Shown: positions 15,736 to 24,612, numbered from the stretch's first letter. The stretch: DNA of 64,000 nucleotides from Pseudonocardia sp. (GCA_052387455.1 JBQTJE010000084.1:11879-75878); one strand, 5' to 3'. Made by a program: numbers and translations. Notes: generated by a model from the letters alone, not told the origin.

Positions 15736-18594
15736 GTGGCAACCCGAACGACGACCCAGACCGACCCCGACGGCGCCGTGACCGGCGCGCGGAAGGCCGG
15801 TGGCAGCCGTCGCGCCACCCCACCGGCAGCGACCGCGACCGGACGCCCGACGCGCCGGTTGGTGATCGTCGAGTCGCCCACGAAGGCCCGCAAGATCGCC
15901 CCGTACCTGGGCGCGGGCTACGTCGTCGAGTCCTCCGTCGGCCACATCCGCGATCTCCCGCGTGGTGCGGCCGACGTGCCCGCCAAGTACAAGGGCGAGT
16001 CCTGGGCCCGCCTGGGCGTCGACGTGGACAACGCGTTCGCGCCGCTCTATGTCATCACCCCGGAGAAGAAGGGCAAGGTCGCCGAGCTGCGCGACGCGCT
16101 CAAGTCCGTGGACGAGCTGCTGCTCGCGACGGACCCCGACCGCGAGGGCGAGGCCATCGCCTGGCACCTGCTCGACACGCTCAAGCCGAAGGTCCCGGTC
16201 CGCCGGATGGTCTTCCACGAGATCACCGAGGGCGCCATCCGCGCGGCCGCGGAGAACCTGCGCGACCTGGACCAGGACCTCGTCGACGCCCAGGAGACCC
16301 GCCGCATCCTCGACCGGCTCTACGGCTACGAGGTCTCCCCGGTGCTGTGGAAGAAGGTCATGCCGAGGCTGTCGGCGGGCCGGGTGCAGTCGGTGGCGAC
16401 GCGGATCATCGTGCAACGCGAGCGGGAGCGGATGGCGTTCGTCGCCGCGTCCTACTGGGACATCGCGGCCACGCTCGACGCCGGCCCGGACGCGACCCCG
16501 CGCACCTTCGCCTCGCGCCTCGTGAGCGTCGACGGCACCAGGGTCGCCACCGGCCGCGACTTCGGCCCCGACGGCAGGCTGAAGAGCGCGTCGGCCGAGC
16601 CGGGCGCGGTCCGGGCACTGGACGAGCCGAGCGCGCGCCGCCTGGCGCAGGCGCTGGAGAACCGGGAACTGGCCGTCGCGTCGGTGGAGTCCAAGCCGTA
16701 CACGCGCAAGCCGTACGCACCGTTCATGACCTCCACGTTGCAGCAGGAGGCGGGCCGCAAGCTGCGCTTCACCTCCGAACGCACGATGCGCAGCGCGCAG
16801 CGGCTCTACGAGAACGGCCACATCACCTACATGCGCACCGACTCGACGACGCTGTCGGCGACCGCGATCGAGGCGGCCCGCGCCCAGGCCCGCGAGTTGT
16901 ACGGCGACGCGTACGTCTCGCCGAGCCCGCGGCAGTACACGCGGAAGGTCAAGAACGCGCAGGAGGCGCACGAGGCGATCCGGCCATCGGGTGAGACGTT
17001 CCGCACACCCGGCGAGATCGCCCGCGAGGTGGACGGCGACGACTTCCGCCTCTACGAGCTGATCTGGCAGCGCACGGTGGCCTCGCAGATGGCCGACGCG
17101 CGCGGCACCACGATGAGCGTGCGGATCACCGGTACTGCCGCCACCGGCGAGGAGGTCACGTTCGCCTCGTCCGGGCGCACGATCACGTTCGCCGGGTTCC
17201 TCAAGGCCTACGTCGAGACCGTCGACGACCAGGCCGGTGGCGAGGCCGACGACGCCGAGTCGCGCCTGCCGCAGCTCACCCGGGGCCAGTCGCTCACCGC
17301 CGCCGAGCTGCGCCCGGACGGGCACGCCACCAAGCCGCCCGCGCGGTTCACCGAGCCGAGCCTGATCAGCGCGCTGGAGGAGCTGGGGATCGGGCGCCCG
17401 TCCACCTACACGTCGATCATCAAGACGATCCAGGACCGCGGCTACGTGTGGAAGCGCGGCAGCGCGCTGGTGCCGTCGTGGGTGGCGTTCGCCGTGGTGG
17501 GGCTGCTGGAGGCGCACTTCGGGCGGCTCGTCGACTACAACTTCACCGCCGCCATGGAGGACGAGCTCGACTCGATCGCCGCGGGCGACCAGGCGCGCAC
17601 GGCGTGGCTGTCGGGCTTCTACTTCGGCGCCGACCAGGGCAGCGCCGGCTCGGTGGCCCGTTCCGGCGGGCTGAAGAAGCTCGTGGGCGTCAACCTGGAG
17701 GAGATCGACGCCCGGGAGATCAACTCGATCCGGTTGTTCGACGACGCGCAGGGCCGCCCGGTGGTCGTGCGGGTGGGGCGCTACGGGCCGTACCTCGAGC
17801 GGATCGTCGACGAGGCGTCGCAGCGCGCGAACCTGCCCGAGGACCTGCCGCCCGACGAGCTCACCGCCGACATCGCCGAGGACCTGTTCTCGACGCCGCA
17901 GGAGGGGCGCTCGCTGGGCACCGACCCGGTGACCGGCCACGAGATCGTGGTGAAGGACGGGCGCTACGGGCCCTACGTCACCGAGATCCTCCCGGAGCCG
18001 CCGGCGCCCCCGGCGACGAACGGCACGAAGAAGAAGGCCCCCGCCAAGGCCAAGCCGCGGACGGGCTCGCTGTTCAAGACGATGGCCCTGGACACCGTCA
18101 CGCTCGACGACGCGCTGCGGTTGCTGTCGCTGCCCCGCCTCGTCGGCACCGACCCGGCCGACGGCGTGGAGATCACCGCGCAGAACGGCCGCTACGGCCC
18201 GTACCTGCGCAAGGGCACGGACTCGCGCTCGCTGACCGACGAGGAGCAACTGTTCACCGTCGACCTCGACGAGGCGCTCGCAATCTACGCCCAGCCCAAG
18301 CAGCGCGGCCGGCAGTCCGCGGCGGCCACGCCACCGCTGCGCGAGCTGGGTGCGGACCCGTCCACGCAGAAGCCGATGGTGATCAAGGACGGCCGGTTCG
18401 GGCCGTACGTCACCGACGGCGAGACCAACGCGTCGCTGCGCAAGGGCGACGCCGTCGAAACGATCACCGACGAGCGCGCGTCGGAACTGCTGGCCGATCG
18501 CCGGGCCCGCGGTCCGGCCCCGAAGAAGCCGGCCCCGCGGAAGCCGGCCGCGAAGAAGGCGCCGGCGCGGAAGAAGGCGCCCGCCACCAAGTAA
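15736..18594 (+). CDS. topA: DNA topoisomerase I (type IA) with actinobacterial C-terminal repeats and Lys-rich tail
   Basis: LVIVESPTKA, ATDPDREGEAI, SAGRVQS, catalytic ITYMRTD, GRYGPY repeats and KKPAPRKPAAKK tail. Confidence 0.98.
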   Translation: MATRTTTQTDPDGAVTGARKAGGSRRATPPAATATGRPTRRLVIVESPTKARKIAPYLGAGYVVESSVGHIRDLPRGAADVPAKYKGESWARLGVDVDNAFAPLYVITPEKKGKVAELRDALKSVDELLLATDPDREGEAIAWHLLDTLKPKVPVRRMVFHEITEGAIRAAAENLRDLDQDLVDAQETRRILDRLYGYEVSPVLWKKVMPRLSAGRVQSVATRIIVQRERERMAFVAASYWDIAATLDAGPDATPRTFASRLVSVDGTRVATGRDFGPDGRLKSASAEPGAVRALDEPSARRLAQALENRELAVASVESKPYTRKPYAPFMTSTLQQEAGRKLRFTSERTMRSAQRLYENGHITYMRTDSTTLSATAIEAARAQARELYGDAYVSPSPRQYTRKVKNAQEAHEAIRPSGETFRTPGEIAREVDGDDFRLYELIWQRTVASQMADARGTTMSVRITGTAATGEEVTFASSGRTITFAGFLKAYVETVDDQAGGEADDAESRLPQLTRGQSLTAAELRPDGHATKPPARFTEPSLISALEELGIGRPSTYTSIIKTIQDRGYVWKRGSALVPSWVAFAVVGLLEAHFGRLVDYNFTAAMEDELDSIAAGDQARTAWLSGFYFGADQGSAGSVARSGGLKKLVGVNLEEIDAREINSIRLFDDAQGRPVVVRVGRYGPYLERIVDEASQRANLPEDLPPDELTADIAEDLFSTPQEGRSLGTDPVTGHEIVVKDGRYGPYVTEILPEPPAPPATNGTKKKAPAKAKPRTGSLFKTMALDTVTLDDALRLLSLPRLVGTDPADGVEITAQNGRYGPYLRKGTDSRSLTDEEQLFTVDLDEALAIYAQPKQRGRQSAAATPPLRELGADPSTQKPMVIKDGRFGPYVTDGETNASLRKGDAVETITDERASELLADRRARGPAPKKPAPRKPAAKKAPARKKAPATK

Positions 18595-18688
18595 CACCCG
18601 ATCGGGCGATCAGTTCTCGTTCCAGACCTCGGAGCGGCGCCCCGATCTAGCGTCGGAGGCGTCTTGATCACTGCCGCGGAGCCCCGAG

Positions 18689-19174
18689 ATGCGAAGATCC
18701 CTCGTGATGGCTGACCACCGCCGTCGCGTTCGTCTCCCTGCCCGCGACCCCGGCCTTCGCCACGGTCCGCGGCGCGAGCGAGTGCCTGAACACCTTCGAC
18801 AACGACCCCTCAACCGCTACTACAGCGAGAAATGGGATAGCGACGAGGTCGCGACGGCAACGACCCGGGATGGCACCACGCTGACACTGCGGTGCGGTAA
18901 CGAGCTATACGGCGTGATTCACACGGCCCACCGGGAAAGCACCGGCACCGGTCATCCGATCGAACGCGACGGCTCCGAGAACGCGAGCTTCACAACCTGC
19001 TTCCGGCGCACCATCAGCGAAGGAACGACCGGGCCGGACGGCGACCGGCTTCTCGCTGTTCGTCACTATGGTCATTCGGGCGCACGCAGCTACGTCCGGT
19101 ACGGCCGCGATGGCACCGTGTACTCGGTCTACACGTCTGCGCCCAGCAACGAGTGGGCGGGGTGTGCGCGATGA
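18689..19174 (+). CDS. Putative secreted Cys-containing protein whose signal peptide is scrambled by two compensating frameshifts
   Basis: Frame +1 over 18711-18809 reads LTTAVAFVSLPATPAFA-TVRGASECLNTFDNDP (signal peptide, AFA site). The main frame resumes LNRYYSEKW...LRCGNELYGVIH...WAGCAR. Confidence 0.6.
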   Translation: MRRSLVMADHRRRVRLPARDPGLRHGPRRERVPEHLRQRPLNRYYSEKWDSDEVATATTRDGTTLTLRCGNELYGVIHTAHRESTGTGHPIERDGSENASFTTCFRRTISEGTTGPDGDRLLAVRHYGHSGARSYVRYGRDGTVYSVYTSAPSNEWAGCAR

Positions 19175-19674
19175 CCCGCCGACGACAGATCGACCTCACC
19201 CTGACACTGGGTAGCTGTCTCCTGTCGTTCGATGCAGGGCGGCGGACGGCGGGCTTCGGTGCGTCGAACATCACTGACGCAGTCGCCGAGGCGGTGCATG
19301 CCTGCGTGGAACTTACCCGGGGTCGTCGCGACGTCAGCTTCATCTGGCGTGCGGAGCCCGAAGGCGTCTTCGTCGACATCCACGCCGGCCACCGGCTGAC
19401 GAACCTCGTCGTGCACGACATGCGCAACCCCGACTGGTCGTTCGACAACTGGTTGCCGGAGCGTGGCGACGTGCTGTTCCGCTTGAGCGCCAAGCACGAC
19501 CGTTTTCTTCTGGAGTTCGCCGAATCCGTCGTTTCTCTTCCCGCGCAGGCTGCGACAGGGCGTCCTCTCTGGGGACTGCCGCTGCCGGAGCACGAGATCG
19601 CCGAGGTCGGCCGCTGGCTCGAGCAGCAGACCGGCGTCGGCTCCGGTGGTTCGGTTGCCGAGGAGTCGTCATGA
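19171..19674 (+). CDS. Hypothetical cytoplasmic protein, possibly immunity-like
   Basis: 167 aa; ATGA-coupled to both neighbours; no signal peptide or transmembrane segment seen. Confidence 0.65.
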   Translation: MTRRRQIDLTLTLGSCLLSFDAGRRTAGFGASNITDAVAEAVHACVELTRGRRDVSFIWRAEPEGVFVDIHAGHRLTNLVVHDMRNPDWSFDNWLPERGDVLFRLSAKHDRFLLEFAESVVSLPAQAATGRPLWGLPLPEHEIAEVGRWLEQQTGVGSGGSVAEESS

Positions 19675-20066
19675 CCAGGTCCTTGCGCGCAGCAGCCGTC
19701 GCACTCGGCATGATCGCGACGATGCTGCTCGGCGCCGGCGTCGCGAACGCTGCCACGTACTCGTTCGCCTGCAAGCCGCCCCAGTTCGTCGGATCCGGAC
19801 CGTGCGGCGGGCCGTTCGTGGTGCGCGCCAACGACATCGTGCGGGTGAACCTCGTATCATCGGGCGGCCACAAGGTGCTCTTCTACGCATACGTGGATGG
19901 CAGCAAGGTCGGTGAGACCGATCTTCTCGATCCGGGCGCAGCCGAAGCGGTGGCGTGGCAGAACAACACCGGGCACGACGTGACCGTGCAGATGTATGCA
20001 AAGACGGCTTACGACGACTACGAGGTCCAGGTGCTCGCCAAGGGCAACTACCGGGTGGAGCCGTGA
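19671..20066 (+). CDS. Secreted beta-rich protein of unknown function
   Basis: Sec signal MTRSLRAAAVALGMIATMLLGAGVANA|ATYSF; two Cys near the mature N-terminus; alternating beta-strand patterns. Confidence 0.8.
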   Translation: MTRSLRAAAVALGMIATMLLGAGVANAATYSFACKPPQFVGSGPCGGPFVVRANDIVRVNLVSSGGHKVLFYAYVDGSKVGETDLLDPGAAEAVAWQNNTGHDVTVQMYAKTAYDDYEVQVLAKGNYRVEP

Positions 20067-20067
20067 C

Positions 20068-20841
20068 GTGCTGACGACGTCACGTCAGCACGCCTGGCGG
20101 GCCGAGCTGCGGCGGGCGCTGTGGTCCTGGCGGTCCGCGCTGCTCGCTGCGGCGTCGGCGCTCTACCTGTCCTCGGAGTTCTTCGATCTACGGCTCGTGT
20201 TCAGCTACACACCGGGGGCACAGGGCGCACTGGCATTCACGCTCAACAACGACCTGCCGGGGATGCCACTGGCGCTGGCCGCGGGCGTGTTCGCCGCATT
20301 CGGGCTCGTCGAGGACTACTCCTACGGTCGCCGGCCCTACGCCCACGTCCGAGCCGGCACGAGCCGTCGCTACCTGCTCGCGCGCGTCCTCGCCCCGGCG
20401 ATCGCCCTCGCTACAGCCGTACTCGTAGGGTGCACCTGCGCGATGGGGTTCGCCTTCCTCCTGCTGCCACCCGGTCCGACCGCGTTGAAGCCGGGCTTCG
20501 GACAACCATGGCCGCTGTTGGACGCCGGGCCGCTGATCGCGGACCTCGCGCTCACCGGGCTGGTCGTCCTGCACACCGCCGCGTTGACCGTGCTCGCCTC
20601 GGTGATCGCCCGGTCGGGCCGGCAGCTCGCGACACTGCTGCTGCCGCCGGCCTTCCTCGTGATCACCGGCGTGCTGGCCCGTGGACCTCTGGAGGTGCTC
20701 GGCCCGGGCGGCCGGGTCTCAGCCGACACGCCCGGCGAACTGGTGGCCAACCTGACCTACTGGGCCGTTCTCGGGGGCCTGGCCCTCGCCGCCAGCCTCG
20801 TCCTCGCCCGCCGTCCCACGCCCGGGAGACCCGATGCCTGA
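20068..20841 (+). CDS. ABC-2-type transporter permease
   Basis: About six hydrophobic segments; adjacent to an ABC ATPase; GTG 1 nt after the upstream stop. Confidence 0.75.
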   Translation: MLTTSRQHAWRAELRRALWSWRSALLAAASALYLSSEFFDLRLVFSYTPGAQGALAFTLNNDLPGMPLALAAGVFAAFGLVEDYSYGRRPYAHVRAGTSRRYLLARVLAPAIALATAVLVGCTCAMGFAFLLLPPGPTALKPGFGQPWPLLDAGPLIADLALTGLVVLHTAALTVLASVIARSGRQLATLLLPPAFLVITGVLARGPLEVLGPGGRVSADTPGELVANLTYWAVLGGLALAASLVLARRPTPGRPDA

Positions 20842-21670
20842 CGCCCTGGTCACCGCGGATGGGCTGAGCAAGCGCTACGGCCACCGCGACGCCGTCCGCG
20901 ACGTGTCGCTGACGGTCGCGCCCGGCGAGGTCGTCGGCCTGATCGGGCCCAACGGGTCCGGCAAGTCCACGCTGATCCACATGCTGGCCGGGCTGGTCAA
21001 ACCGGGCGCCGGCACCATGACGGTCGCCCCGCGGATCGGGCTCGTCCTCGAACATGACGGGCATCTGCCCTACCTCAGCGCGCACCGCAACCTCGCGCTG
21101 CTCGCCGCGCTCGCCGGCGGCACGACCGCGTCGGAGATCGACGACGCGATTCGCCGGGTCGGGCTCGACCCGGCCGACCGCCGCCGGGTCCGCCGCTGGT
21201 CCCAAGGCATGCGGCGACGGCTCACCCTCGCCCAGTCCCTGCTCGACGACCCGCCGCTGCTGCTGCTCGACGAGCCGACCAACTCCCTCGACCCGGCCGG
21301 GGTCGCCGACTTCCGCGACCTCCTGCGCGCGCACACCGCCCGCGGCGGCGGGGTGCTGCTGGCCAGCCACGCCCTCGACGAACTCGCACGGGTCTGCGAC
21401 CGGGTGCTCGCCATGCGCGACGGGCGGGTCGTGCCCGGCCCGGCGAGCGCGGGCCGGCACGTCCGGATCCGGGTGTCCGGGGACATCGCGCTCGCCGCGC
21501 AGGCGCTGCCCGGGTGCGTGCCCGGTGAGCAGCCCGGCGAGTTGGTCGTCGCGGCCGAGGAGCCGGTGCCCGACCTCGTCCGCCGGCTCGTCGAGGCCGG
21601 CGTGAAGTTGGAGATGGTGCTGCCCGACGCCCACGACCTCGAAGCCCGCTACCTCGGCCTGGTGACCTGA
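20834..21670 (+). CDS. ABC transporter ATP-binding protein (exporter type)
   Basis: GPNGSGKST, WSQGMRRR signature variant, LLLLDEPTN and LASH switch. Confidence 0.95.
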   Translation: MPDALVTADGLSKRYGHRDAVRDVSLTVAPGEVVGLIGPNGSGKSTLIHMLAGLVKPGAGTMTVAPRIGLVLEHDGHLPYLSAHRNLALLAALAGGTTASEIDDAIRRVGLDPADRRRVRRWSQGMRRRLTLAQSLLDDPPLLLLDEPTNSLDPAGVADFRDLLRAHTARGGGVLLASHALDELARVCDRVLAMRDGRVVPGPASAGRHVRIRVSGDIALAAQALPGCVPGEQPGELVVAAEEPVPDLVRRLVEAGVKLEMVLPDAHDLEARYLGLVT

Positions 21671-22488
21671 TGGTGGCCTGGGGGCTGCTGCTGGTCGGGA
21701 CGGCGCTGCGCGGCTGGCGGTTGCTGGTCGTCGCGCTCGTGCTCGGCGGGGTGAGCTGGCTCGCGACCAGCAGCATCGTCAACACCGGCACCGGGGCCGG
21801 ATGGTTCCTCGACGTCCCCGCCCACCTGCTGAACCGGCCCAACGCCGTGCTGCTGGCCGTGCTGCCCGGCTTCGTCCTGCTCACCGCGGATCTGGTGCCG
21901 CGGGCGTTGGGGTCGGGTCGCGCCGGGTACGCCGCGACCCGGCTGGGGAGTCGCGGGCGCTGGTGGGCGGGCACCGCGGTCGGCGTCGCGATCCTGGCGG
22001 CGGCGTACACCGCCGCGGTGGTGCTGGCTGCCCTCGCGGCCGGGCTGGTCCGGCTCGGCGTCCGTCCCGGCCCGCAGGAGGTGCGCGCGGCGATGCTCGC
22101 CGAGGTCGGGTTGCCGGCGTGGCTGACCGAGCCGTCGGCCGCCGCGGCCGGTGCGATCCTGCTGCCGCTGTTCGGGGCGCTCGTCGCGCTCGGGCTGCTG
22201 GCCGCGGTCGTGTCGCTCTGGGCGGCGTCGCCCGTGGCGCCGGGCCTGGCCGTCGCCGCGGTGCTGGTCGCGAGCCTGCTCGGGGTGAATCGGATCGGCC
22301 GGCCGCCGGCCCTCGACATCATCGCCGGGGTCAGCCCGATCGCCTACCGCGACGTCGTCCGGCCCGACGGGCTCGTCATCGCCGGCGCCAGCCTGACCCT
22401 GGCCGTCGCAGCCGCGGCGGCGTGGGTCGCCGTGCTTGCCGCGGCCGGGTGGTGGCGGGTGCGGCGCAGCGGCGTCCCGGTGCGCTGA
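21670..22488 (+). CDS. ABC-2-type transporter permease
   Basis: About six transmembrane segments; TGATG overlap with the ATPase stop. Confidence 0.75.
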   Translation: MVAWGLLLVGTALRGWRLLVVALVLGGVSWLATSSIVNTGTGAGWFLDVPAHLLNRPNAVLLAVLPGFVLLTADLVPRALGSGRAGYAATRLGSRGRWWAGTAVGVAILAAAYTAAVVLAALAAGLVRLGVRPGPQEVRAAMLAEVGLPAWLTEPSAAAAGAILLPLFGALVALGLLAAVVSLWAASPVAPGLAVAAVLVASLLGVNRIGRPPALDIIAGVSPIAYRDVVRPDGLVIAGASLTLAVAAAAAWVAVLAAAGWWRVRRSGVPVR

Positions 22489-22643
22489 CCTCCGACGTCG
22501 GCGGGGCCGTCCAACACTCGTCAGCCGTCGCGTCGGGTGCGGCGCGCGGCCGCGCGGCGGGCGACACGGCCGCATCGGACGGCGGCCGGCCCGGTCCGGT
22601 GTCCCGGACGCCGGGATCACCGGATCGGGACCGAACCCGGCCC

Positions 22644-22708
22644 ATGATCATCGATCGGGGACGGCGAGGCGTGATATCCACAGTTCACGGTCCCCCCGAG
22701 ACGATCAA
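22644..22708. repeat. Degenerate palindromic TGATCA..CGGGGACGG element
   Basis: ATGATCATCGATCGGGGACGG followed by an inverted partner CGGTCCCCCCGAGACGATCA; similar to units at 33.2-33.4 kb and 59.8-59.9 kb. Confidence 0.45.
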
Positions 22709-23068
22709 GGCGCGAAAAGTCCGTGGCCGCCGGCCACCGCCTCCGGGCCCTGCTCCGCGTCCCGGTTCCAGGACTGCAAGGAACTACAGGCGGGAATGGA
22801 CGAGCCGCTGCGCCGGCTGGCCGTCACCCCGCGGAGACGCCCCGGGAGCGGGCCTGACGTCGTCGCCGACCGGCGTGACGGCCTCGCCAGCCACCGCCGT
22901 GCGTCCCGAAGCGGCGATCACCGGGGGGTACGGCTCGCGCCGCACCAACGTCCGCGCGCCGCGCCAACCTCCCAGCGCCGCGCCAGCGTCGGGCGGCGGG
23001 CGCGGCGACGGCCGGCGGGCGCGGCGGGGCCGGCGGCGGTCACGGGCTGCCAGCAGTGGAGGCGGGGG

Positions 23069-23539
23069 TCAGGCCGTCAACAGCGTCTTGACGGCGGCGG
23101 CGACGCGCTTGCCGTCCGCCCGGCCCGCGACGGCGGCGGTGGCGCGCTTCATGACCAGCCCCATCTGCCGCGGCCCCGGCCGTTCCCCGGCCTCCGCGGC
23201 CTGGGCCTCGACGGCGTCGCGGGCGATCACCGCCAGCTCGTCGTCGTCGAGCTGGGCGGGCAGGTAGCGGGCGAGGATCTCGCCCTCGGCGCGCTCCTGG
23301 GCGGCGAGCTCCGGGCGGCCGCCCGCGGCGAACGCCTCGGCCGACTCGGCGCGCTTCTTCGCCTCCTTCGTGATCACCGTGAGGATCTCGGCGTCGTCGA
23401 GCTGGCGGGCCTGGGTGCCGGCGACCTCGGCGTTGCCGATGGCCGTCAGCGTCATCCGCAACGTGGCCTTGACCAGCTCGTCGCGCGCCTTCATCGCCGT
23501 GGTGAGGTCGGCGCGCAACTGGTCCTTGAGGGTGCTCAC
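23069..23539 (-). CDS. GatB/YqeY domain protein
   Basis: LKDQLRADLTTAMKARDE, EAKKRAES..F..GGR and MGLVMK motifs. Confidence 0.93.
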   Translation of the reverse strand: MSTLKDQLRADLTTAMKARDELVKATLRMTLTAIGNAEVAGTQARQLDDAEILTVITKEAKKRAESAEAFAAGGRPELAAQERAEGEILARYLPAQLDDDELAVIARDAVEAQAAEAGERPGPRQMGLVMKRATAAVAGRADGKRVAAAVKTLLTA

Positions 23540-23574
23540 GGTCGGCAACGCTAGCCCACACGTACCCTTCCGGG

Positions 23575-24513
23575 ATGGCGAGTTGGGGTCGGCTGGCGGC
23601 GGGCGCCGCGGGGGCGGGGGCGGTGACGGTCGCGTACGCGGCCGGCGTCGAGCGGCTCCGGTGGACGTTGCGGGAGGCCACGCTGCCGGTGCTGGCCCCC
23701 GGCTCGCGACCGTTGCGGCTGCTGCACGTCTCGGACCTGCACATGACGCCGGGGCAGGCGGGCAAGCAGCGCTGGGTCGCCGAGCTGGCCGCGCTCGAAC
23801 CCGACCTCGTCGTCGACACCGGCGACAACCTCGCCCACCCGCGCGCCGTCCCGGCCGTCGTCAAGGCGCTGGGACCGTTGCTGGAGCTGCCCGGCGTGTT
23901 CGTGTTCGGCAGCAACGACTACTTCGGCCCGACCCCGAAGAACCCGCTGCGCTACCTGTGGTCGCGCTCGCGCAGGCCCAGCGGCGTCCCGCTGCCGTGG
24001 CGCGACCTGCGGGCGGCGCTGCTCGAGCGCGGCTGGCACGACGCCACCCACGCCCGCGTGCAGCTCCAGGCGGGCGGGCTGAGCGTCGCCGCCGCCGGTG
24101 TCGACGACCCGCACCTCGGCCTCGACCGCTACGACCGCATCGGCGGCCCGGTGCACGACGCGGACCTTCGGCTGGGCCTGACGCACTCTCCCGAGCCGCG
24201 CGTCCTCGACCGGTTCGCCGCCGACGGCTACGACCTCGTCCTCGCCGGGCACACCCACGGCGGCCAGGTCCGCGTCCCGCTCGTCGGCGCGCTGACCACG
24301 AACTGCGGCATCGACCGCTCCCGCGCCCGCGGCGCGTCACGCTGGGGCGCCGGCACCCGCCTGCACGTCTCGGCCGGGCTCGGCACCTCCCCGTGGGCGC
24401 CGGTCCGCTTCGCCTGCCCGCCCGAGGCGAGCCTGCTCACCCTCGTGCCGCGCCCGGTGGCACGCGGCCGGCACCGCGCCACCCCGGCGTCGGAGGTCGC
24501 GGACGTCGGGTAG
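23575..24513 (+). CDS. Metallophosphoesterase (Rv3683-like, calcineurin-like)
   Basis: HVSDLH, TGDN, GSNDY, THSPE and AGHTHGGQ. Confidence 0.93.

Positions 24514-24537: not shown

Positions 24538-24612
<75 letters not shown>

Follow-up and report, generated by a model that had tools for sequence, protein, structure and literature searches.

A 64,000-nucleotide stretch of Pseudonocardia sp. DNA (GCA_052387455.1 JBQTJE010000084.1:11879-75878; hereafter the window) carries six translationally coupled genes (g1 to g6) on the plus strand at 18689-22488, and these are read here, with slightly better than even confidence, as a secreted-antagonism cassette composed of a toxin, an immunity protein, a jelly-roll partner and an ATP-binding cassette (ABC) exporter. 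A preliminary description of the window had proposed an undescribed secreted toxin or bacteriocin plus immunity locus, a proposal that is now supported computationally by a fold match for g1, by the co-occurrence of g1 with partner genes and by a recurring gene layout. Among actinomycetes, antagonism through proteins has been mapped much less thoroughly than antagonism through small-molecule antibiotics, and both umbrella toxins and Sec-secreted ABPs are recent additions.

As shown in Table 1, the six genes are closely packed: the stop of g1 and the start of g2 form an ATGA overlap (19171-19174), as do those of g2 and g3 (19671-19674); the stop of g3 ends at 20066 and the GTG start of g4 lies at 20068, which leaves a 1-nt gap; g4 and g5 overlap by 8 nt (20834-20841), and g5 and g6 share a single base (21670). 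All of these overlapping or 1-nt-spaced junctions had been listed in the preliminary description and were confirmed on the sequence, and its account of g2 to g6 was likewise borne out: g2 is a 167-residue cytoplasmic protein with no hydrophobic segment, signal peptide or transmembrane segment; g3 is a secreted, beta-rich protein of 104 mature residues, with a single hydrophobic segment at the N-terminus followed by a mature part that is all-beta; and g4-g6 encode permease, ATPase and permease, with about six hydrophobic segments in both g4 and g6.

The gene order directly after topA is kept in metagenome and SRA contigs of related organisms (L013-L022). In addition, a second, apparently intact cassette is present in the same genome on contig C31 (C31:31474-35113; locus L126, 5475-9114), in the order etfA, g1', imm5, g3', permease, ABC ATPase, permease, iscS, with overlapping junctions and a like dip in GC content (0.63-0.68). 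Its g1 paralog was found by a hand-built hidden Markov model (HMM; E 1.9e-11), and its identities to the window genes are 35% for g3, 43% for g5 and 30% for g4. This type of cassette is intact at the etfA-iscS site of Pseudonocardia G501 (L140, G501:C13, 4990-8707), and only fragments of g1', imm5, g3' and the permeases are found at that site in G430 (L141, G430:C21, 6660-7620). The two anciently diverged cassettes thus share a six-slot layout, with unrelated genes in slot 2. Because the same order is found in related metagenome contigs and in the paralogous locus, the arrangement is not a product of chance; and g3 and the ABC genes, which turn up again in the layout of the second locus, are not incidental neighbours.

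Table 1. Features of the six-gene locus, in coordinates of the window.
Feature	Position	Strand	Description and basis
Accessory island	18568..23066		Between topA and a yqeY-like gene; comparison with empty sites
g1	18689..19174	+	Member of a Sec-exported family with four Cys and a His pair, BECR-like fold by model; open reading frame open, frame-disrupted
g1, shifted segment	18708..18806	+	Between two compensating frameshifts; signal-peptide core and first conserved Cys in the other frame
g2	19171..19674	+	167 residues, cytoplasmic; candidate cognate immunity protein or inhibitor of g1, from adjacency to g1 homologs
g3	19671..20066	+	Sec-exported; 104-residue mature jelly-roll beta-sandwich with one Cys pair (AlphaFold2 model)
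g4	20068..20841	+	Membrane permease; ~6 hydrophobic segments (hydropathy); no Pfam family
g5	20834..21670	+	ABC ATPase of ABC-2/DrrA/lantibiotic-protection type; PF00005, 7.9e-28
g6	21670..22488	+	Second membrane permease; ~6 hydrophobic segments (hydropathy); no Pfam family
GC-rich spacer	22489..23068		580 nt, GC 0.78; distal island end

The gene 1 family and its predicted fold

A profile search of 1.84 billion cluster representatives places g1 in a family of 97 clusters, in which the near-full-length representatives are mostly 140-202 residues long, three reach 244-301 residues and the remainder are shorter fragments. The members are standalone proteins consisting of a signal peptide and a single domain; all the named ones are labelled hypothetical, two of them from Pseudonocardiaceae and Allokutzneria, and the distribution is sporadic (8 of 401 genomes sampled from the order). 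The family has no match in Pfam, NCBIfam or PHROG, the 70 aligned homologs likewise have none in Pfam, and a profile search of PDB sequences with the family returned no match. In the 70-sequence alignment C33, C69, H89 and C104 are invariant, and H78 (68 of 70 members), G70, G75, W156 and C159 are near-invariant; the only further well-conserved polar residues are T146, T149, N154 and, often, D71.

The AlphaFold2 model of the family (predicted local distance difference test, pLDDT, 88; predicted template-modelling score, pTM, 0.81) consists of helices at 30-39 and 43-47, a beta-hairpin at 53-68, helices at 75-80 and 98-111, and four strands within 113-149. When this model was compared with the PDB by Foldseek, the top match was 7m5f_C (E 2.9e-3, prob 1.00, template-modelling score (TM) 0.43/0.56, 22% identity over 100 columns), and all other PDB matches had prob <=0.2. 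It has been reported that this 119-127-residue chain of 7M5F is the CdiA-CT toxin domain of Serratia marcescens BWH57, a member of the BECR (barnase/EndoU/colicin/RelE) ribonuclease (RNase) superfamily, whose fold likewise comprises a beta-hairpin, helices and four antiparallel strands (PMC8616854). The alpha+beta fold of g1, in which a four-stranded antiparallel sheet lies on a core helix, agrees with the BECR arrangement, and the 7m5f_C match is moderate, not strong. The sole clear structural neighbour is a toxin domain with a BECR RNase fold, so that the weak hint of a nuclease fold that had earlier been drawn from the Gly and His pattern of gene 1 was correct.

The conserved residues of CdiA-CT BWH57 are H47, E51, H52, R89, N117 and R119, of which H47, E51, H52 and R89 form the proposed nuclease site (PMC8616854). 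In 37 of 68 members of the g1 family the spacing between the two conserved His is 5 residues, and N154 follows the second His by about 65-66 residues, as do H47, H52 and N117 in this contact-dependent inhibition (CDI) toxin; this likeness in spacing is consistent with homology between g1 and CdiA-CT and is no proof of it. Counterparts of E51 and R89 are not conserved in the 70-sequence alignment. Both systems also have an immunity-type gene directly downstream. However, CdiA-CT BWH57 forms the C-terminal end of a large filament of a two-partner-secretion system of Proteobacteria, whereas g1 is a standalone, Sec-exported protein with two predicted disulfides in Actinomycetota; the HMM detects no sequence similarity between them, and the 167-residue g2 is unlike the 98-residue CdiI. 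Among viral proteins, the only confident neighbour of the g1 model is a 112-residue siphovirus protein (BFVD entry A0A8S5MGU1; E 5.9e-4, TM 0.41/0.56), a model-based match which suggests that the fold family also occurs in phages.

Frame disruption of gene 1 and the genes of slot 2

The reading frame of g1 was analysed by three-frame translation against intact homologs and by the GC content at third codon positions (GC3) per frame. The open frame at 18689-19174 starts with MRRSLVM and continues as an Arg-rich reading, and a second frame encodes LTTAVAFVSLPATPAFA...ASECLNTFDNDP; it is this second frame that matches the signal peptide and first Cys of the intact homologs P0002 (68% identical) and L014. 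Since the intact homologs match the second frame there, two compensating frameshifts about 95 nt apart must flank the core of the signal peptide together with the first conserved Cys, and GC3 in the shifted segment is 1.00 in the family frame versus 0.60 in the open frame. The frame repair of gene 1 made in the preliminary description is thus justified, and its claim that gene 1 is Sec-exported holds for the family, which has a signal peptide, but not for the window copy, in which the export signal is out of frame. As assembled, the window copy would therefore be unable to secrete the toxin. The frameshifts are either evolutionarily very recent or sequencing errors. Programmed frameshifting and an alternative start were considered and rejected, as the family frame has no start codon after the stop. 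The open frame as assembled runs through to the ATGA junction with g2, which would preserve the translational coupling of g2.

In related organisms g1 has decayed in other ways. Codon 3 is TGA in L015-L020, which are contigs of six different sequencing runs, and the partner protein is present on 7 contigs; in L021 and L022, g1 is reduced to its last ~20 codons before an intact g2. An unrelated open reading frame (ORF) of 104 residues occupies the place of most of g1 in these two contigs (L022 16-330 and L021 1-210). The partner gene g2 is intact in every g1-decayed lineage examined and is duplicated in L013/L014; g3 and g4 are joined by a deletion fusion in L015/L016, and g3 is frameshifted in L021/L022. 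The window island probably persists as an immunity-retaining remnant; to judge from the reading frames, it may now mainly confer immunity, and the C31 cassette looks functional.

In the recovered contexts, g1 homologs are nearly always followed by a co-oriented gene that lacks a signal peptide and that overlaps them or lies no more than 40 nt from them. This slot-2 partner belongs to at least five unrelated families, none of which matches Pfam, NCBIfam or PHROG: the g2 family (the window lineage, G012, G231 and an uncalled ORF on a plasmid-like contig); a family of ~209-226 residues (G385, G116 and G022, with a remnant in G020); a family of ~327-346 residues (G022, G073 and the contigs with P0010 and P0017); a family of 208 or 244 residues (G041 and the P0068 contigs); and 'imm5', of ~90 residues (G385 and the second locus of the genome studied here). 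The partner families track clades on the tree of g1 homologs, with at least one switch. The co-occurrence of genes 1 and 2, which had been taken from the window as a usual toxin-immunity layout, extends to four independent contexts, one of them a circular 9-kb plasmid-like element, and in other g1 clades this slot is filled by different partner families. As in polymorphic toxins, an immunity-type gene lies adjacent and downstream, and its family varies along the g1 clades. A toxin-immunity signature is recognised here because the cognate partners are polymorphic, the distribution is sporadic and mobile, g1 decays with its partner kept, and the partner may be duplicated.

The circular element was recovered as Logan contigs of 9047 nt (L129-L131), which are circularly permuted with a 30-nt terminal overlap, so that its length is ~9,017 bp; among its genes are those for FtsK/SpoIIIE-type, ParA and MerR proteins as well as a g1 homolog, after which comes the uncalled g2-family ORF, and a tblastn search of PLSDB with the plasmid-borne homolog gave no match. 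In Allokutzneria sp. NRRL B-24872 (L132 5001-5794) and in G231 (L032 6198-7733), a small secreted Cys-rich beta protein is encoded directly after the g1 homolog; the two small proteins are 40% identical over 40 residues, and in G231 the g2-family gene comes after it. A likeness of these small proteins to tendamistat (PF01356) was rejected, being a sub-threshold hint only.

Accessory genes and competing readings

The signal peptide of g3 ends at ANA|A, and the AlphaFold2 model of g3 is all-beta, with pLDDT >90 across most of the mature part. Its Foldseek neighbours, at TM 0.4-0.5, are the Pgp3 C-terminal domain, the BC2L-C lectin N-terminal domain, phage tail-fibre tips, carbohydrate-binding modules and Cry-toxin domains; going by its model, g3 resembles the jelly rolls of lectins or of receptor-binding domains, and proteins of this fold class commonly bind ligands or receptors; no specific homolog emerged. 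It has no match in Pfam, NCBIfam or PHROG, and a profile search of PDB sequences was empty. Relatives of g3 are very few; one is in the C31 cassette of the same genome, and another stands alone in G194. As for the transporter, g4 and g6 have no match in Pfam, NCBIfam or PHROG, and the best NCBIfam matches of g5 are TIGR03740 and TIGR01188, both far under cut-off (148.2 bits against a cut-off of 309.75 for TIGR03740). The genes g4-g6 supply one ATPase and two distinct permeases with six transmembrane segments each, which is the composition of LanFEG transporters; no lantibiotic gene is found in the island, and g5 lies under the TIGR03740 cut-off.

In the proposed mechanism, the g1 product would leave the cell by way of Sec, acquire two disulfides by oxidation and attack competitors as an RNase-type toxin, with the conserved His pair as the likely catalytic centre. 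The slot-2 product, as conserved adjacency and partner polymorphism suggest, would be the cognate cytoplasmic immunity protein that binds and blocks the toxin, and it would neutralise toxin that has folded before export or that arrives from sibling cells. It is plausible that g3 binds a cell-surface ligand and thereby assists or tunes toxin delivery, and that the LanFEG-like exporter adds self-protection at the level of the envelope.

Several points weigh against this mechanism. The toxicity and RNase activity of g1 are predictions from its model; with a TM of about 0.5 and an E above 1e-3, the structural match to 7m5f_C is of moderate strength, and the RNase function of CdiA-CT BWH57 is itself predicted only (PMC8616854). 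Besides the two His, no Arg, Lys or Glu is conserved in the g1 family. The members, of ~150-200 residues, have no receptor-binding or translocation domain, which leaves their entry into target cells unexplained, and g2 shows no similarity to known immunity families in Pfam, NCBIfam or a profile search of PDB sequences. The roles given to g3 and the ABC transporter are weakly suggested by architecture and fold class, and the g1 frameshifts, in a genome of 277 contigs, could be assembly errors.

Secreted RNases with cytoplasmic inhibitors are known from Bacillus and Streptomyces, and it might accordingly be supposed that g1 is an extracellular digestive or housekeeping RNase of the barnase/barstar type and g2 its pre-export inhibitor, with no killing of competitors, and that g3 and the ABC genes serve the envelope in some unconnected way. 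This explanation, which is considered rather unlikely, would account for a small, standalone, Sec-exported, enzyme-like g1 without a delivery domain; barnase is, in addition, the founding member of the BECR fold class (PMC3482391), and barnase-barstar and RNase Sa-type pairs resemble g1-g2 in joining a small Sec-exported RNase of the same broad fold class (for g1, by model) to a cytoplasmic inhibitor. However, neither g1, its 70 aligned homologs nor g2 matches a Pfam or NCBIfam family, ribonuclease and barstar included, and membership of the barnase/barstar families was rejected; the partners are polymorphic, with at least five unrelated families tracking the g1 clades; the loci are sporadic and borne on islands and a plasmid-like element; and g1 has decayed repeatedly with its partner kept and sometimes duplicated. 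The barnase-type explanation is disfavoured because partner polymorphism, sporadic and mobile loci and such decay typify conflict systems, not nutrient scavenging.

Sec-dependent bacteriocins are also known to adjoin ABC immunity transporters, and the locus could be divided into two modules, in which g3 is a diffusible bacteriocin with g4-g6 as its immunity transporter and g1-g2 is a separate travelling toxin-immunity pair; to this division only a low probability is given. The LanFEG-like set of one ATPase and two six-segment permeases fits it, in most other genomes the g1-g2 pairs lack an accompanying g3 or ABC genes, and the g3 homolog of G194 is solitary. In this respect lactococcin 972 and LanI/LanFEG loci resemble the cassette, in that a Sec-dependent secreted protein is encoded beside a transporter of that composition; they differ from it in that neither g1 nor g3 matches PF09683/TIGR01653 (E up to 1), lantibiotic genes are absent and g3 has no lipobox. 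The parallel with lactococcin 972 drawn in the preliminary description consequently does not extend to kinship of g1 or g3 with that family, which was rejected. The model of g3, moreover, resembles a lectin or receptor-binding jelly roll and not an obvious second toxin; its fold neighbours serve in binding and are neither pore-formers nor enzymes. What further speaks against two modules is that g1, slot 2, g3 and the ABC genes are translationally coupled and have been kept together in two cassettes at different chromosomal sites (35-43% identity). An explanation without any toxin, in which g1 and g3 are structural, adhesive or (through the His) metal-binding envelope proteins, g2 acts as a chaperone or as a regulator and the ABC transporter exports some substrate unconnected with them, is held to be quite improbable. 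It can draw on the merely moderate fold match of g1, on the conservation of two His and no other charged residue in the g1 family, and on the lack of a family annotation for g1, g2, g3, g4 and g6; but the next PDB neighbours of the g1 model reach prob <=0.2 at most, swaps of slot 2 to unrelated families are hard to square with a chaperone, and the decay of g1 with g2 kept is hard to explain.

The antagonism-cassette reading may also be compared with other toxins of Gram-positive bacteria. Diffusible secreted nuclease toxins, BECR RNases included, that have immunity genes next to them are represented by AbpT toxins with a cognate S8 protease and by the S8-Ntox35 loci (PMC12582261; PMC13556192), and it has been shown that a small liberated toxin domain, or a diffusible Sec-secreted nuclease toxin, can enter Gram-positive cells (PMC12582261). 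Unlike these systems, which need the S8 protease, the cassette has neither an S8 protease gene nor an N-terminal pro-domain; g1 would be exported as a bare toxin domain, and the jelly-roll secreted protein and ABC exporter stand in place of the AbpT-type protease. Multidomain polymorphic toxins with N-terminal trafficking or repeat domains (Zhang et al. 2012) were considered and rejected as a class for g1, whose family has a signal peptide and a single domain. A secreted BECR-type toxin with a downstream immunity gene is of an already known kind; the g1 family is unannotated and has no delivery domain, and no description of a conserved cassette that combines a secreted jelly-roll protein with a LanFEG-like exporter was found in the literature and libraries searched. 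A bolder version of the reading, for which the chances are thought small, is that such cassettes represent unrecognised diffusible binary toxins of actinomycetes, in which a bare, disulfide-locked BECR RNase (g1) would be targeted to competitor cells by the separately secreted, lectin-like g3, the producer would be doubly protected by the clade-specific cytoplasmic slot-2 inhibitor and the LanFEG-like exporter, and the cassettes would move among core-gene junctions and plasmids and decay to immunity-only islands.

The locus defines an unannotated, toxin-like family (~97 clusters, no Pfam model) with a structural link to CDI toxins and at least five candidate immunity families. If the toxin reading is true, it would add a new class of delivery-domain-free secreted RNase toxins, several new toxin-immunity pairs and a tractable example of cassettes that decay into immunity-only islands; if it fails, what is left is a six-gene module, conserved and mobile, whose function is unknown.

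Chromosomal setting of the island

The window is high-GC actinomycete DNA, and its topA is closest to those of Pseudonocardia metagenome-assembled genomes and species (80-86% identity). In 9 other Pseudonocardia genomes the site is empty: topA is followed by ~90-150 nt and then by a convergent yqeY-like gene (23069-23548, minus strand, in the window) and a metallophosphoesterase gene (23575-24513 in the window). DNA similarity to these empty sites ends at ~18567 and restarts at ~23066, and because it breaks off and restarts at the island edges, the six-gene cassette is placed in an insertion of ~4.5 kb, of lower GC content, between topA (which ends at 18594) and the yqeY-like gene. The repeat and Rfam scans found no flanking repeats, integrase, boundary tRNA or RNA element at the island, and scans for promoters and terminators, repeats and Rfam families likewise gave no boundaries, mobility signals or RNA elements.

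The higher A/T content noted in the preliminary description at 18.6-20.1 kb agrees with the measured composition, since GC is 0.65-0.67 over 18.6-20.2 kb, the proximal end of the island, versus 0.70-0.78 in the flanks. GC3 is 0.78-0.85 in g1-g3 (0.80 in g2 and 0.85 in g3) and climbs along the operon to 0.87 in g4, 0.95 in g5 and 0.96 in g6, and it is 0.96 in topA. In the spacer at the distal end, codon-position GC periodicity is absent in every frame, and neither an Rfam match nor flanking repeats were found. The 3' end of topA (18514-18576) contains four tandem 15-nt units that encode the Lys/Ala/Pro-rich C-terminal tail, and similarity to relatives stops within this tail. At the other side, a tRNA gene (24538-24611; Rfam 65.8 bits) lies 3' of the metallophosphoesterase gene, away from the island boundary.

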